52,417 nt of DNA from Vezdaea acicularis (GCA_026025075.1 JAPEUI010000027.1:124001-176417); one strand, 5' to 3'; positions 1 through 5,800 are shown, counted from the first letter of the stretch. Made by a program: numbers and translations. Notes: generated by a model not told the origin, from the letters alone.

Positions 1-537
1 GCCCGTCTTGGTCCGACGCTTGATCTCCTTCTTGTGCCTTCCTCCCGACATGATCCGACTGTCGTTCGGCAATTGGTAGCGCATGCCCTGGTGATGTGGA
101 GAGGACGTGACGTTGGGGTGTTGATGGCCCGGTGGTGGGAGATTCTGGTGTTGCTGTCCGTAGTACGCGGGAACCTGACCGCCCGGCGGTGGCAGTGGCG
201 AGCCCATCCCGACCTGCTGCTGTTGCGGTTGACGAGGGTCGATGGATCGGATGGGAGGGAGATTGAGACTGGGGAGCGAGACGTGTGATCCGGTGGGCGA
301 GGCACGATAGGGTTCGACGTTCTGCTGTTGTTGAGGAGCAGGATAGGCGTAGGCGGACATGGAAGGGGACGGGTACGAGTGCGGCGACGGGTAGGAGGTC
401 GGCTGGCGCGACTGCGAGGTGTTCTGCTGTTGCGACATGCCGGTCATGTAAGGCTGCGCGTAGCCAGGATGAGGCGGCGACGGTGTTGACGGGGCGGAGG
501 GCGGGTTATCCAGATGGGACAGATGATGATGCGACAT
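1..537 (-). CDS. Zn(II)2Cys6 (C6 finger) transcription factor, 5' part (runs off the window edge)
   Basis: Not in the ORF track because there is no stop in the window. Minus strand from ATG at 537 reads MSHHHLSHLDNPP...SYPSPHSYPSPSM...LPSLNLPPIRS...IMSGGRHKKEIKRRTKTG. RRTKTG is the segment that typically precedes CLTCRKRRIKC in fungal C6 fingers; the cysteines themselves lie outside the window. In-frame stop upstream at 619-621. Confidence 0.8.
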   Translation of the reverse strand, partial: MSHHHLSHLDNPPSAPSTPSPPHPGYAQPYMTGMSQQQNTSQSRQPTSYPSPHSYPSPSMSAYAYPAPQQQQNVEPYRASPTGSHVSLPSLNLPPIRSIDPRQPQQQQVGMGSPLPPPGGQVPAYYGQQHQNLPPPGHQHPNVTSSPHHQGMRYQLPNDSRIMSGGRHKKEIKRRTKTG

Positions 538-1642
538 GGAGGCCGACGGAGAAGGGAGAGAAGGAGAGGAGCAGGAGGACGGCGGCGGTCGATGGGATAC
601 GGTCGCCCTTTGGAATTCTCACGGAGAACTCGGTCTGCTTTTGCGTGTGTCGGGGCCCAGTGGCCGCAGTCAGACGAGAATGGCCGAATCAGGCGTGGAT
701 CAACCGCGGGTGATGATCGAAGGCGAGGCAGAAGCGAACCCAAGCGAGATCGCGAAACCGAACGGCGAGGGTCGTCTGGGGGCCGGGTCGTCTGCTGGCG
801 ATGAGACGAGGGCGCGAGCTGCGAGCGAGAACGAGGCTTTGGACTCGAGGTAAAAAGGAATGACGCTGGACGGGTTGCGAGCGGCGGCGGGCTTGTGGCG
901 ATGAGCGTGTCGACGAAGATGAGAGAGAGAGGACAAGGGGCGAGCAGGAAAGAGCTTGGGAGAAAAATGGGAAAATGAGAGAGAAAAAATCGGAGACTGC
1001 GGCACCGTGTCAACTCGACCGTCCGAGCGTGGGCAGCGAGTCAGGCCGCGGGGGAGGGCCACTTGGGCAACTTTCCGTTCCTCTCTGGCCGCCGGATAGG
1101 GAGCTGCTCACGTGTCACCGTCCGCTGCCCGTAACCTGTGACCTGACGTCTTCTCGACGGGCGCCCTCCTTAGGCACCGTGTTGTTGCTGGTGCTCGGTG
1201 GTGCTCTGCGGTGCTTCGCTGCTCGGCCCCGTGCAGTTTCGTCGTGGCGCGCAAAAGAATGTTGTTTGGGCCTTGCCAAGCGCGGGAATGCGCCGAGCCT
1301 GAGCGGAGGCTGATGCGTCTCGTCTGAGCAGCGATTGGTAATGCGCGGACCAGTCCGGTTGGCGAGAGGAAGAAAGAGAGAGCCGCTGGGCGAGTGGAGC
1401 GGGATGGGAGATAGGTGAATCTGGCGTGTCTTCGGCAGCAAGCAGCAACAGACAGCGCGGGCGGCGTCGAGGATTATCGCATTTATTCCCTCGAGATGAA
1501 CCGCCAAAACGAATATCCTGTGAGCAGGGCGGGCTTGGCGAAGGGTCCGGGGCGGCGTCAGATTGGCTGGGGCCGGTGCGACGGGTAAAGTTAGCGAACG
1601 GGGATGGAGGTGGGAGGAGGCGGCGGCGGTAGCGAGACACAG

Positions 1643-1687
1643 CACGCGGGTGACAAAAAAACCGTCACACCAAAATAGTCGAGAGCG
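1643..1687 (+). repeat. Left terminal inverted repeat (45 bp)
   Basis: CACGCGGGTGACAAAAAAACCGTCACACCAAAATAGTCGAGAGCG. The first 32 bp are the exact reverse complement of 2861-2892; the remainder matches with one indel and one mismatch. Confidence 0.95.
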
Positions 1688-1712
1688 ATGAAATTTAATT
1701 GTGAAGAGCTAG

Positions 1713-2828
1713 CTAATATCCAGTCATTCTCCCTTCGCAATTAATGACTTCCTGTAACCTCTGAGGCATTGATAGTACCTGTGCATTAATAAACTCCTGT
1801 GAGACCATAGCCCAGCCCTCGTATATCAGTTCTCGCGTGGTTGTATCATCCCAATGAGGGTATTTGTTGAGATTTTGCTTGGGAATCTGCCAGCAATTTT
1901 CAATTGGTGACAGATCTGGTGATGAAGGGCAATTAAAATAATGCTTTAGGCTATGATTATCCTTCCAATTTCTTACAATATTGGATTTTCCAGGCCCGTG
2001 TCCACTATCATTATCCTCTTCCAGCACAAATTCTTGTTCACATTGCAGCCAAGGCTTAACAATTGGCTCTAATATCTGTTCAATATAGGCTTTCTGTGAC
2101 ATTTTTCCGTTATTATTCCCTTGTATATTGTAGAAATGAATATCTGATTTAAAATTCCATCCCACTGCTGCCCAACAATGCAGTCTTTTCCGGTCATTCT
2201 CTCTTGTCACATTGGTATATTGAAGGCAATCATTGCAGTATCGCATTCCCGGCTTTCGAATTATTTGAAGTTTGCGTTGAGGTCCCCAGCCAAAGTGTAC
2301 CTCGTCAGAAAATCGTACGTGCTTCCAGTCCTCTGCTGAAGGATAGCGTTCCAACATTATCCTTGCCCATTCTAATCTCTTTGTAGCTGTGCGGGAGTTA
2401 ACCCAACCTTTCAAACAGGCTATGCACTTGTGATATTCCATTGTACCCATTGCTCTCTTGATAGTACGTCCATTACAGTCTAATCCTACCTCTGTACCAA
2501 GTTGCTGCCAGGTAAGTGCTCGTGCCTCTATCCCTTCTTGTTCCAAAAGCTGTTCCATCTGTTGGATCTTTTCTGGTGAGACAATTGACTTGCGACCTCT
2601 AGTCTCTCTTGTATTAGGTTTGTTGTGGTGTCGCCGTATAGAATCCTGGCCTTGAAGAATTTCATGTCCCCGTCGGCTTGTCACTCCAAAGTATCGAAAA
2701 ACATCTTCCTTAAAGAAAGGAAGACCTTGGGCTCTGCAAAATTCGACTGCACCCTGTATTTTCGCTTTATTGGGCGTTGAATAGTGGCATTTGGCCTCGC
2801 GGGGCTCAAGAATTGGTGGTGTTGACAT
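1713..2828 (-). CDS. Tc1-like DDE transposase, 371 aa, DD37E
   Basis: First ATG inside the element is at 2828 (MSTPPILEPREAK). N-terminal HTH-like region and GRK linker. Catalytic motifs are WKHVRFSDE, EEDNDSGH and SPDLSPIENCW, with 37 residues between the second D and the E (counted). Confidence 0.93.
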   Translation of the reverse strand: MSTPPILEPREAKCHYSTPNKAKIQGAVEFCRAQGLPFFKEDVFRYFGVTSRRGHEILQGQDSIRRHHNKPNTRETRGRKSIVSPEKIQQMEQLLEQEGIEARALTWQQLGTEVGLDCNGRTIKRAMGTMEYHKCIACLKGWVNSRTATKRLEWARIMLERYPSAEDWKHVRFSDEVHFGWGPQRKLQIIRKPGMRYCNDCLQYTNVTRENDRKRLHCWAAVGWNFKSDIHFYNIQGNNNGKMSQKAYIEQILEPIVKPWLQCEQEFVLEEDNDSGHGPGKSNIVRNWKDNHSLKHYFNCPSSPDLSPIENCWQIPKQNLNKYPHWDDTTTRELIYEGWAMVSQEFINAQVLSMPQRLQEVINCEGRMTGY

Positions 2829-2848
2829 TGAATTTGTTGTGGTGTTAC

Positions 2849-2892
2849 CGCTCTCGATTATTTGGTGTGACGGTTTTTTTGTCACCCGCGTG
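2849..2892 (-). repeat. Right terminal inverted repeat (44 bp)
   Basis: CGCTCTCGATTATTTGGTGTGACGGTTTTTTTGTCACCCGCGTG, the reverse complement of the left TIR. Confidence 0.95.
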
Positions 2893-5800
2893 ACAGAAGA
2901 AGGCGACGCGAAACTTCGAAAATACGAAAGCAGCGGGAAGGGCTGGGGGCCCGGGGTGAGCAGCGACAAAGCAGCGAGCACGCCTCGCGTTCGGCAAGCT
3001 GACTTCCGACCTGCCGCAAACCCGCAAAGCCCGCCAAGCGGCGAAGAGCCGTCCGAGGGGGGCCTGCTCCTTGCGCGCAGCCGACCAGGCACCGATACGC
3101 GCTCGAGCCTGAGGGTCAAGGGAGAGAGGGTGGGAGACGGCTGAGGAGATGGACGACGAGTGCACGGTTGTTGTTTCTTGTCCTGGACGCGCGACTGCCT
3201 CTTTGTTCATTGCCGTCTGCCGCGACAGGGAAAGAGCCTTCACTTGTCTACGAAAAGGAAGAGCGACGGGGAATGGCGACTTGGCGCTAGCCTCGAGCGG
3301 GAAGGTCGCCGTTGCGGAGACGGGCGCGCATGCCTTCCCAACGCGGAAGGGGCCTCAGGAGGAGAGGGGAGATGCCGCGGGGAGAAGGCGCAGAGTGCTG
3401 CTGCAGGGTAATAGAGCAGCTCCAGTGGCAAACAAGGCGCTCGTCTCTGCCAGGATATGGTGTTGGATTCGTGTGGGCATGGCGACAAACTAGGAGTGCA
3501 CGATGCTCATAAACACGTCCAGCATGATGGGGCTGCCCTTCTCGTCGGAGGGCTTCAGCCGACGTATAGGTCAGCCTTTCGGTGGCTTGAACATGGATGG
3601 AATGCCAATGCAGACTCGCCAAAGCCATTGCGCCATCGCTTGGCTACGGCTTCGCCTTGGCAACACAGCAGATATCAAGAGGCCAGCATGCCCGACAGAA
3701 CGAAGGCAGATAGCGTAAGGCTCTATAGACATGATACGATGGGGAAGGACTAGGACGAGTATCACATGAGCGATGGTTGAAGCGCACAAGACGGGCTACC
3801 TTGCCTCGGCATTCGTCCCTGGGAGGAAGGCACGTTTTGAGTGAGGTATTCAATCTCTTAGGAAGGCACGCGGCACGGATTTGGGGCCCCACGATCTGGC
3901 TCGGCTTTGAACAGCAGCAGACGATGCGGTCGACGGCAACGAAAGATTAGATTCAAACCAGAACGTGGACGTGCGCCGAGCTGTGGATACTACACTGCTG
4001 AGTACAGACCGTGCTCGGTGATAGCAGTCGCTTCAACGTTTGGGTTTCAGCTCGTTTAGCTTGCAGTCCACGTTTGAGAGAGAGCGGCAAGCCAGCTTGA
4101 GCTCTGTTTCGCGTCATATTAGCGGGCGTTGCACGTGTCGATTGCGAGGGTCGACTGGGCTGGGGACTAAAACCTTTCATCATACACCTTGGCTCTGGTC
4201 GACTGCAGATTGCTCGCAGCAGGATACTGGCTAGTCCTGTTTTGAGAGAATTGCAATCCGGTAAGAGTGATTGGTTCGGCTCCGTAAGGAAGAAGACGGG
4301 ATCGGACGTCACGTAAACCGACATGGGAGAGCTTCAAGGGAGATGACGCGATACCGGAGAAGGTTTGACCTGTTCCTTGGAGATAGACTCGAAGCTGCCC
4401 GTTCAGAGAAGGCCAGCGATGCGCAGCGTCCAGGGTTAGAAAACCCTAATGTTGGTCTGGAAGCGGCGAGCATTCTAGAAGCTTGCCTGTTGCGTCGATG
4501 CCAAGACCTCTAGGGCTGCGAAAACGCTCGTCTCCTGGAAACCGCACGCATCTCCCATTGCACACTTATCGAAGACACCAAAATCAACAGACACAAAGCT
4601 CGTGTATCTCTAAAGTTCTTGGAGCTTCACACATGACGACAGTGGCATTTGACTCCCCATGTCAATTGGCTGGCAAATACTGCCCGGACCACAACGACCA
4701 AACCAGGACAATCTTTGAGGCAGACGCGGTAACGGACGAGGTAATATCGCCCGATCGCCTTCTCGATGGGGGCCTGCCTTTCGCACGCATATTCCTCATA
4801 TGTCTTTTGCTTTTTCCCATCATAATTTCTCATGCTCCTCTCGGTGGGTCCTTGTTCTCTCCCCGAGCCTCGGTGTTTCAAGCAAGGTCCGCGCAGTCCT
4901 GCGCATGGGCCGCTCGTTGGGCTCCTTCTATGGTCAATGAGAAAAAACGTGGCAAGCGGCGACCGTCTCCTGGCTCAGATCCTACTCCTGCTTCATTTTC
5001 ACGCAGCTTTGACCAAGGAATGAGGACGACGCTAGCAATCAGATTCGAATGTCTCTTGCCGACGCACCATGAGATGTACTTACCTAATGCAATCGTCAGT
5101 CCATCGCTGCGCTAAGCTATGTGGATTTGCCCTTGTACCTCTCACAGGGATTCTCACCTCGGAGCGGCAATCAAACCAGCTCCATCGATGACAGCATAGA
5201 GTATGAGCCGGCAATCGGCCTTCACCCAAATCGGCGGTTTTGCTTCAACGATGTTTTGTCATATTCCAACAGGTTAATCAATCAAACTATCCTGCAAAAT
5301 GATCAGATCTTTTTAGTTACGGAAGGCCAAATATATCCTTGCTTAGGCCCACGTGAGACTCTGGGCAACAGCCATTCTCAGCTTACTTTCGTTTTATCTC
5401 TTATACTAAAGCTCACGCTTGTTATGTTGGCGTATATCAACTTTGACCCGACTCGGTCACAGTCTGTTCTCTAGTATACGATCATTATATGTGATCAAAT
5501 GCGCATCCAATCCTGCATTGATAAAGACGTAAGAATTGTCTTTTCAGATATCTAAACAGATCTCGGCATACCAGGCAAATATGCAATCCCCAAGCTACCT
5601 AGCCTTGGTATCGTCAAAAAACAAAAGGGCATAGGTCTCGCTCAGCTATAAATTACTCCCTCAACCATGCTCTGTATCGATATGTACACTGCGCCGTGCA
5701 TCTTCACCGAATGACATATATACGGTCAGCTCCAATTACTCTTTCAGCCTAGATTCTCTAAGTTCTCTTAGAGGAAGTTGGTCCTAGAGTCATTAGGCCG

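Follow-up and report, generated by a model that had tools for sequence, protein, structure and literature searches.

The 52,417-nt stretch of Vezdaea acicularis DNA analyzed here (the window) carries a 1250-bp transposon at positions 1643-2892, with ends CAC...GTG. This element probably represents a Tc1-type lineage that has impala-like ends and generates a 5-bp, non-TA duplication at a palindromic target, with the window copy being a polymorphic 4-bp insertion. The lineage is widespread in filamentous ascomycetes, and homologues occur in, among others, Pyrenophora tritici-repentis, Bimuria novae-zelandiae, Clathrospora elynae, Colletotrichum sublineola, Orbilia and Geopyxis. Insertion at TA is treated as a hallmark of the IS630/Tc1/mariner elements, and is relied on by repeat classifiers and by structural models of how Mos1 and Sleeping Beauty capture their target. 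Here a large natural lineage keeps the Tc1 fold and impala-like ends, yet produces 5-bp duplications at a CCWGG-centered palindrome. Its transposase makes it a Tc1 relative by descent, but it is atypical of IS630/Tc1/mariner when judged by the classical TA hallmark.

The element is bounded by two terminal inverted repeats, one at 1643-1674 (plus strand), which starts CACGCGGG and adjoins the 3' end of the transposase gene, and one at 2861-2892 (minus strand), which lies upstream of the gene and ends CCCGCGTG on the plus strand. These 32-nt arms are 100% complementary. Imperfect pairing runs on to approximately 45 nt, to about position 1687 on the left, and a second pair is formed by 1673-1687 and 2849-2863 (93%). 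G1642 and A2893, located directly outside the ends, are unable to pair, which agrees with a first-pass annotation that had placed the termini at CAC (1643) and GTG (2892), where pairing stops. Direct reading also bore out its statement that ACAG is present at both flanks (1639-1642 on the left and 2893-2896 on the right) and that TA is found at neither junction. A 5-bp duplication fails at this copy (CACAG versus ACAGA). Even when as many as 3 mismatches were tolerated, a 29-nt end probe found only two sites in the 52,417 bases, the element's own ends (0.00 expected), and a degenerate end motif matched within the window at 1643 and 2877-2892 only. No further copies were detected in the window, where tblastn returned the element alone. 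A single gene lies between the inverted repeats, and the total length is within the 1-2.5 kb range of IS630/Tc1/mariner elements.

The gene is encoded on the minus strand (2828 to 1713) as an open frame of 371 codons plus a stop, for which no intron is needed. The encoded protein is, as had been proposed, a Tc1-fold DD37E transposase, and its catalytic domain is RNase-H-like. The catalytic residues D176, D273 and E311 correspond to window codons 2306-2304, 2015-2013 and 1901-1899, respectively, and the second Asp and the Glu (D273-E311) are spaced by 37 residues. The protein matched the Pfam family DDE_3 above its cut-off (E=1.1e-09; 38.7 bits, cut-off 28.6). HTH_Tnp_Tc3_2 matched below its cut-off (E=9e-05; 23.1 bits, cut-off 31.5), and is a precomputed annotation on many homologues. 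A profile built from 35 relatives detected the Sleeping Beauty SB100X catalytic domain (5cr4) at E=2.9e-17, and Mos1 at only about E=0.1. The motifs fsDEvhf, leEDgDsgh and spDLspiENcW aligned with the catalytic motifs of Sleeping Beauty in this profile, with a 3-residue insertion after the second Asp. The AlphaFold model of the transposase (mean pLDDT 74) contained helix bundles at residues 21-59 and 86-128. Its best Foldseek matches were the Sleeping Beauty and Mos1 transposases (E=2.4e-09 to 1e-08), with a TM of 0.73 to Sleeping Beauty over the target, and the Tc3 DNA-binding domain (1u78) was matched weakly (E=1.4). The ESM Atlas returned generic DDE_3 or Tc1-like clusters only, and 449 cluster representatives of the lineage were obtained at E<=1e-30.

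The ACAG repeat was read by the first-pass annotation as a target duplication, and the empty site on which that reading turned was recovered. A 2342-nt metagenome contig from the same population (run X1) spans 1200-1638 and 2893-3400 unbroken, which provides 439 and 508 nt on either side, and joins 1638 to 2893 with ACAG present once. It skips 1254 bases, with 4 letters that fit either side, which corresponds to the 1250-bp element plus one ACAG. The same empty junction was present in a 173-nt contig from run X2, in which the 17 letters before 2893 equal window positions 1622-1638. Because the empty allele carries a single ACAG, the duplication is real, and because this uninterrupted site occurs in the same fungal population, the insertion is polymorphic. 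The flanks of the empty allele differed from the window at 3/439 and 0/508 positions, so the insertion also looks young. No filled junction of the window insertion was seen in runs X1, X2, X3 and X5; since contigs break at repeats, this says nothing about absence. Judged from its sequence, the window element is probably an autonomous cut-and-paste DNA transposon that was active recently. Loose contig ends were also noted at 1640 (flank ...CCTTTGGG) and 2896 (flank CAGGCCGAAC...), from which no duplication could be read.

Relatives of the element were collected from metagenome contigs of unknown organisms. A total of 273 were found and 80 loci were kept; 56 of the 80 had a terminal inverted-repeat pair. 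After three loci at contig ends were dropped and duplicates collapsed, 47 flank-distinct groups entered an automatic scan, and an exact duplication of at least 5 bp was present in 25. When left and right flanks were taken from different loci, the mean was 1.3 matches and the maximum 5 (200 permutations). For a refined count of 42 distinct related insertions (42-66% protein identity), the terminus was fixed at the invariant first C, which was C in 50/50 aligned arms of the lineage. Alignment to the end consensus set the termini, apart from those of L018, L063 and L068, whose indel-bearing arms called for placement by eye. Of the 42 insertions, 24 had a duplication of exactly 5 bp that was not TA and that extended to 6 bp in none of the 24, and TA/TA was found at the fixed terminus in none of the related loci. 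Every main branch of the transposase tree contained such 5-bp duplications, across pairwise identities down to 35%, and they were present in each of the nearest tree relatives of the window element (L001, L003, L005 and L018).

The remaining 18 of the 42 insertions lacked a clean 5-bp duplication. The duplication of L044 could be taken as either 4 or 6 bp and that of L074 as 7 bp, L009 matched at 5/6 bases and L016 at 4/5, and L030 and L061 gave 5 bp only if 2 extra bases were permitted at one end. No duplication was found in the other 12 (L008, L015, L019, L020, L022, L031, L032, L039, L060, L070, L071 and L077), among which L060 and L071 have uncertain termini. A second copy with identical 30-nt ends was present in the same metagenomes; its flanks (...CTACCCCTC and CCCTCTACC..., on separate short contigs assumed to flank one insertion) gave the 5-bp duplication CCCTC. 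The 24 exact cases and the CCCTC copy indicate that the usual stagger of the lineage, as read from these sequences, is 5 bp and that the window copy, with 4 bp at a poor target, is an exception. The earlier suggestion that a fungal lineage has an altered, non-TA target choice was thus upheld, whereas a 4-nt stagger as the trait of that lineage was not.

The 24 exact sites yielded a palindromic 11-bp target consensus, TAS|CCWGG|STA. A was present at position -2 in 16 sites, C at the first and second duplicated positions in 17 and 16 sites, respectively, and A or T at the third in 20; on the right side, T at +2 and A at +3 each occurred in 16 (binomial p of 3e-6 to 2e-5 for the logo positions). 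Some of the related target sites may lie in similar repeats. The window target, gac|ACAG|aag, fits this consensus poorly. The expectation that insertion is not restricted to TA held in that TA is not used, but the palindromic preference means that targeting is altered rather than free.

Impala and mimp of Fusarium oxysporum (Tc1 family) provided the closest comparison for triad, ends and size, which were compared in place of protein sequence. Impala is listed as DD37E by Dupeyron et al. (PMC7325037), and the window element has the same triad. It is likewise a small single-gene element, with 371 aa compared to 340 aa for the impala transposase (PMC5579170). The end consensus of the lineage is CACGCGGGTGACAAAAAAAGCC; aligned in the same register, CACGCGGGTGACAAAA agreed with the impala/mimp end motif at 11/16 positions and the L011 end (CACGCGGGTGCAATAA) at 13/16. 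Positions 3-5 differ (CGC versus GT[GA]). On reinsertion, impala and mimp enter at TA, which is duplicated (PMC5579170), unlike the window lineage, in which the duplication is 5 bp (4 bp in the window copy) and not TA. Tc1 and Sleeping Beauty (DD34E) have a homologous catalytic domain, inverted ends, one gene and a helix-turn-helix N-terminus, for which the Pfam match here was below cut-off. The lineage differs from them in being DD37E through the 3-residue insertion, which lies right after D-x-D-S-G-H; the strict Tc1 family needs 34 residues from the second Asp to the Glu, whereas the window transposase has 37. Sleeping Beauty also has P247-K248 and TA where the lineage has Ser-Gly and a 5-bp duplication.

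In the mechanism that we propose, the transposase would attach the two 3' ends to the target strands with a 5-bp offset, and gap repair would therefore leave a 5-bp duplication. It would prefer the palindromic 11-bp site and not TA; the window copy entered a poorly fitting site and has a 4-bp duplication. By analogy with Mos1 and Sleeping Beauty, the transposase may act as a two-fold symmetric complex. The changed stagger could stem from the segment after the second catalytic Asp, D-x-D-S-G-H-G-x-G, in which Ser-Gly replaces P247-K248 of Sleeping Beauty and three extra residues are present; the AlphaFold model is poor in this region (pLDDT under 50 at 272-281). P247 and K248 of Sleeping Beauty lie 3 and 4 residues past the second Asp and are predicted to be near target DNA, and the P247S substitution is described as slightly shifting the target consensus (PMC8934666). 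It is possible, though we hold this at somewhat less than even confidence, that an impala-related lineage widened its stagger, originally 2 bp at TA, to 5 bp, and gained an 11-bp palindrome in which a TA flanks the duplication on either side at a distance of one base, through this rebuilt post-Asp segment (Ser-Gly for Pro-Lys plus a Gly-x-Gly insertion).

Other explanations of the 4-bp duplication were weighed. The lineage could be strictly 5 bp, with the window copy having begun as CACAG or ACAGA (plus strand) and lost one junction base, either when the gap was imprecisely repaired or in a subsequent 1-bp deletion. We regard this as unlikely, though it is the strongest of the alternatives. 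It is favored by the 5-bp rule elsewhere, in the 24 exact cases and the CCCTC duplication of the same-ended copy, and by irregular junctions in relatives (the 2 extra bases in L030, L061 and the L050 miniature element, and the 4/5 match in L016). It requires, however, an extra event exactly at the junction, in an element whose ends are intact and perfectly paired and whose insertion looks young. That the window's subfamily makes 4-bp duplications as a rule, with 5 bp confined to remoter relatives, would suit the 4-bp duplication of the sole subfamily insertion whose empty site is proven, and a 4-bp reading is also available for L044. Nevertheless, the copy from these metagenomes whose 30-nt ends are identical to those of the window element gave CCCTC, and the nearest tree relatives are all 5 bp, which makes a 4-bp rule improbable.

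The flanking repeats and the target consensus might also reflect insertion into one host repeat type and microhomology-guided repair, rather than the transposase itself, since strings similar to ggtagg/cctacc are present in several flanks (for example L027, L050, L051 and L069). This appears very improbable: the palindrome is centered exactly on the middle of the duplication, as predicted for a two-fold symmetric transposase complex and not for a host repeat, the flanks are otherwise unrelated, and the rule spans contigs and transposases that are only 35% identical. Least credible, and hardly to be entertained, is an ordinary TA-duplicating Tc1/impala element with an ACAG repeat by chance. A 4-bp chance match is expected about once in 256, and TA is the superfamily rule (PMC7325037 and PMC5579170). 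Such an element is contradicted by the empty allele, which lacks exactly the element and one ACAG, by the lack of TA at both junctions and by the related insertions, none of which has TA/TA at its terminus. The preferred reading thus remains a lineage with a usual 5-bp stagger and a 4-bp exception in the window.

Literature searches, which covered sources other than Repbase, Dfam and most subscription journals, found no fungal element of the Tc1/mariner type described as making a duplication of 5 bp or of any other non-TA kind. Nothing was found for TcMar-Sagan together with TSD, and the end string CACGCGGGT returned unrelated papers only. The lineage may already have been described, for example in Repbase or Dfam. 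Its elements may be misclassified or misdelimited in fungal genomes. The lineage provides a comparative handle on the determinants of stagger in DDE transposases and a candidate start for Tc1-type tools with another target rule, and since the window copy is intact and polymorphic, it may still be mobile. If the stagger did shift as suggested above, the lineage would represent a natural experiment in the spacing of DDE transposase active sites on target DNA, and would supply Tc1-type vectors with no requirement for TA.

Departures from TA have precedents. The C. elegans elements Tc4 and Tc5, and also Zator, belong or are related to IS630/Tc1/mariner and duplicate 3 bp (TNA for Tc4/Tc5) instead of TA, but they fall in pogo-like and ISAzo13-like branches in other hosts, and are not known to us to have a palindromic core of the CCWGG type. 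Transib and RAG produce 5-bp duplications and have ends that begin with CAC. A Transib/RAG identity, considered because of the CAC ends and the 5-bp duplication, was rejected on the Tc1-like homology of the transposase (Pfam, profile and Foldseek). Only the general RNase-H fold is common to the Transib/RAG transposase and the window protein, and the resemblance is convergent because the latter is clearly Tc1-like. Sublineages defined by duplication length are also found in a different superfamily, in which hAT5, hAT6 and hAT7 have 5, 6 or 7 bp compared to the usual 8 bp of hAT (PMC12730594).

The element occupies window positions 1643-2892 (1250 bp), starting with CAC and finishing with GTG. 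Its TIR arms, 1643-1674 on the plus strand and 2861-2892 on the minus strand, pair perfectly over 32 nt, and a second pair of arms (1673-1687 and 2849-2863) extends the pairing to about 45 nt with one mismatch. G1642 and A2893, just outside the ends, are unpairable. ACAG was read directly on both sides (1639-1642 and 2893-2896); a 5-bp reading of the same flanks gave no match (CACAG and ACAGA), and TA was absent at both junctions. The ends, the ACAG flanks and the lack of TA, all reported in the first-pass annotation, were exact. A 29-nt arm probe allowing up to 3 mismatches detected only the two ends in the 52,417-base window (0.00 expected), which contains no second copy of the element.

The transposase is encoded on the minus strand by an ORF of 371 codons, from an ATG at 2828 to a stop at 1715-1713. 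In Pfam searches it matched DDE_3 above the curated cut-off (E=1.1e-09) and HTH_Tnp_Tc3_2 short of the cut-off (E=9e-05). A word-indexed search returned 413 relatives among 805 candidates at E<=0.001, with a top identity of 68%, and the named relatives were exclusively ascomycetes (Pyrenophora, Bimuria, Clathrospora, Colletotrichum, Rutstroemia, Orbilia and Geopyxis). D176, D273 and E311 (numbered with one extra residue before the Met) were invariant or nearly so in an alignment of 35 relatives. The profile of this alignment matched the Sleeping Beauty catalytic domain 5cr4 at E=2.9e-17 with the three catalytic motifs aligned, and Mos1 only at E of about 0.1. Relative to Sleeping Beauty, the family carries three more residues directly after the D-x-D-S-G-H segment, which turn DD34E into DD37E. 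The AlphaFold model (mean pLDDT 74, pTM 0.55) was structurally most similar to the Sleeping Beauty and Mos1 transposases (E=2.4e-09 to 1e-08), and other DDE enzymes appeared only at E>0.03. An exhaustive profile search of cluster representatives returned 449 at E<=1e-30, 3890 at E<=1e-10 and 14,113 at E<=0.001. The protein is therefore a Tc1-type DD37E transposase belonging to a sizeable fungal lineage.

The element (G+C about 41-46%) lies in a block of about 62% G+C, roughly window 1-3600, in which the plus strand is much richer in G than in C (GC skew 0.1-0.44) and whose long open frames gave no Pfam matches. The remainder of the window has a G+C of about 45-55% and carries ordinary fungal housekeeping genes, for CwfJ, a GPN-type ATP-binding protein, a class II tRNA synthetase, SNF5, a LIM protein, an MFS transporter, mitochondrial S11, Tim44 and a VPS9-ankyrin protein. 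A second A+T-rich dip a few kb from the element, at 5250-5700 (G+C 0.39-0.42), showed no similarity to the transposase.

The window stretch was sought in public runs and was represented in three moss-metagenome runs of one study, with 0.71, 0.67 and 0.33 of the sampled words present; contigs of the runs were compared with window 1200-3400. A 2342-nt contig of run X1 joined 1200-1638 to 2893-3400 without a break, skipping 1254 bases, with four letters fitting either side. Since 1254 is 1250 plus 4, this contig is the unoccupied site with one ACAG. Relative to the window, its flanks carried 3 differences over 439 positions on one side and none over 508 on the other, indicating that it comes from the same population, in which the insertion is polymorphic. 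The same junction was found in a 173-nt contig of run X2 that starts from 2893, although its further side is short (17 letters, equal to window 1622-1638). An excision product is expected to retain both ACAG copies, usually with a footprint, and the single ACAG in X1 and X2 is best read as the pre-insertion site. The unoccupied allele thus upheld the earlier proposal that ACAG is a genuine duplication. The filled junction was not seen in the contigs of four runs, which is uninformative because contigs break at repeats. A separate X1 contig (record 6) carries the element itself and differs from window 1645-2890 at 19 of 1246 positions, mostly by transitions; from these sequences, two or more element variants are in circulation in this population.

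Related insertions were sampled by scanning metagenome contigs with the transposase alignment. The best 80 loci of 273 relatives (42-66% identical to the window protein) were kept, and a script found a TIR pair around the gene in 56; the other 24 were truncated by contig ends or too decayed. All arms fit one consensus, and the first base was C in 50 of 50 arms. Three loci whose contig end was too near (L046, L047 and L048) were left out, and the remaining 53 formed 47 flank-distinct groups. Inspection by eye showed that L013 and L059 repeat L005 and that L024 repeats L016, while L007, L028, L029 and L043 had the right flank of L005 without its left end; after this collapse, 42 distinct two-ended insertions remained. 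The right flank of L005, ...CGTGGgtagtag, is common to seven contigs from different assemblies (L005, L007, L013, L028, L029, L043 and L059). Three have a complete element; in the other four, a truncated left end is joined to other DNA, which marks them as rearranged or mis-assembled versions of a single insertion.

An automatic scan that let the terminus move symmetrically between -12 and +3 detected exact flanking repeats of at least 5 bp in 25 of 47 groups, compared with a mean of 1.3 and a maximum of 5 for left flanks paired with right flanks of other loci (200 permutations). With the terminus fixed at the conserved first C, 24 of the 42 distinct insertions had an exact 5-bp repeat, and none of these also matched at 6 bp. 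The repeats were CCTGC, ACCCC, CGTGG, CCAGC, CCTGC, GCTGG, CCAGT, CCTGT, GTGGT, CGAGG, CTTAT, CTACC, CCGAG, CCGTG, GTACG, CCTAC, CCAGC, ACAAG, CCTGG, CCACC, AGAGC, GGTGA, CCTAG and CCTCT; three of the 24 (L018, L063 and L068) have arms with indels, and their termini were set by eye. The other 18 insertions lacked a clean 5-bp repeat. L044 reads as 4 or 6 bp, L074 as 7 bp, or as 5 bp if each end is allowed a single unpaired base, L009 as a 5/6 match and L016 as a 4/5 match, and 5 bp is obtained for L030 (GACCC) and L061 (AAGGC) only with two extra bases (CA and GT, respectively) allowed at one end. No repeat was found at L008, L015, L019, L020, L022, L031, L032, L039, L060, L070, L071 and L077, the termini of L060 and L071 being uncertain. 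The irregular junctions of L030, L061 and L074 hint at occasional imprecision of end processing or gap repair in the lineage. At the conserved terminus, none of the loci had TA on both sides. Eight showed TA/TA when the terminus was shifted symmetrically, in most cases corresponding to the outer TA of the target consensus. In a tree of 21 intact transposases, some only 35% identical to one another, 5-bp repeats were present in every main branch, and the nearest relatives of the window element (L001, L003, L005 and L018) all had 5 bp. A 79-bp miniature element with lineage ends (L050:240-318) lies 60 bp upstream of the full L050 element, flanked on both sides by CCATG; on the left, an additional CA separates the repeat from the element end.

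Unoccupied sites were rebuilt from the 24 exact 5-bp insertions. Outside the duplication, T at -3 (12/24), A at -2 (16/24), C or G at +1 (20/24), T at +2 (16/24) and A at +3 (16/24) were preferred, and within it C at positions 1 (17/24) and 2 (16/24), A or T at 3 (20/24) and G at 4 (13/24), with binomial p of 3e-6 to 2e-5 at the strongest positions. The consensus, TAS-CCWGG-STA (hyphens mark the edges of the duplication; S, C or G; W, A or T), is palindromic about the central base of the duplication, and symmetrised counts over 48 half-sites were T 28, A 32, S 35, C 26, C 29 and W 40. Shared flanking bases would also arise if the flanks merely derived from one host repeat, but palindromic symmetry about the duplication, as expected from a transposase complex with two-fold symmetry, argues against such an origin. 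Oriented by the transposase gene, 13 duplications start with CC and 4 end with GG, one doing both; this bias (12 against 3 exclusive cases) is not predicted by symmetric ends and is marginal.

Duplications other than TA have precedents in the wider group, namely TNA in Tc4/Tc5 and 3 bp in Zator. CAC ends with 5-bp duplications are also the pattern of Transib/RAG, which the lineage resembles in both respects; membership is excluded by its Tc1-type transposase. Among named elements, impala of Fusarium oxysporum, from which the mimp miniatures derive, is the closest. Aligned in the same register, the impala/mimp end motif agrees with the lineage consensus CACGCGGGTGACAAAA at 11/16 positions and with CACGCGGGTGCAATAA of locus L011 at 13/16. 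Given these matches, the ends look homologous and the cut position is conserved, whereas the target rule is different, impala and mimp duplicating TA (PMC5579170). Impala is placed as DD37E within the Tc1 family by Dupeyron et al. (PMC7325037). In hAT, sublineages defined by duplication length are known (PMC12730594). A search of the full-text literature, with Repbase Reports and Dfam outside its scope, gave no description of a Tc1/mariner-type fungal lineage with 5-bp or other non-TA duplications. Repbase Reports or Dfam is the likeliest place for a prior description, and there is a real chance that curators have already noticed the lineage.

By homology with Mos1 and Sleeping Beauty, the transposase would bind the two ends via its helix-turn-helix region, pair them and excise the element, after which the two 3' hydroxyls would attack the two target strands. 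The attacks would fall 5 bp apart, not 2, after TAS on each strand, and gap repair would yield the 5-bp duplication, which is the observed part of this pathway. Miskey et al. (PMC8934666) place Sleeping Beauty P247 and K248 three and four residues past the second catalytic Asp, within a stretch whose predicted position is near the target DNA. According to the same paper, almost every substitution of K248 abolishes transposition and P247S causes a slight shift in the target consensus; it also cites a bend of 147 degrees that Mos1 imposes on its target at the TA. At the P247 and K248 positions the lineage has a nearly invariant Ser-Gly (S276, G277), and the three extra DD37E residues come two positions later. 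Ser-Gly together with the insertion is a plausible candidate seat of the changed target geometry, in a segment where the structural model is unreliable (pLDDT <50 at 272-281).

Copies sharing the window element's own ends were also found in the moss runs. At one X1 junction with the 30-nt end, the flank reads ...CTCTCTACCCCTC up to the end, and at another, found in an X3 contig that includes 203 nt of the element's interior and also, in reverse complement, in X1, the flank begins CCCTCTACCGACC... right after the end. If these flanks, which are on separate contigs, border one insertion, the duplication would be CCCTC, a 5-bp match with a chance of about 1 in 1000. Because of this copy, the window's subfamily is taken usually to make 5 bp, with the 4-bp ACAG as the exception. 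Of the 4-nt-stagger, non-TA lineage first proposed, the non-TA part stands (no terminus with TA/TA), and the usual stagger is revised to 5 bp (24/42 insertions and CCCTC). The ACAG duplication may reflect a genuinely variable stagger, or a base may have been lost at the junction. The window site (gac-ACAG-aag) is a poor fit to the target consensus, and it is speculation that this may be connected with the odd length. Contigs of 660-896 nt from X1, X2 and X3 share the outer 29-32 nt of the end (window 1640-1671), with unrelated sequence (CGTACAACCAAAATTGCAGG...) behind 1671 and a flank of their own (...CCTTTGGG) before 1640, and resemble either a second subfamily or a non-autonomous derivative that uses these ends.
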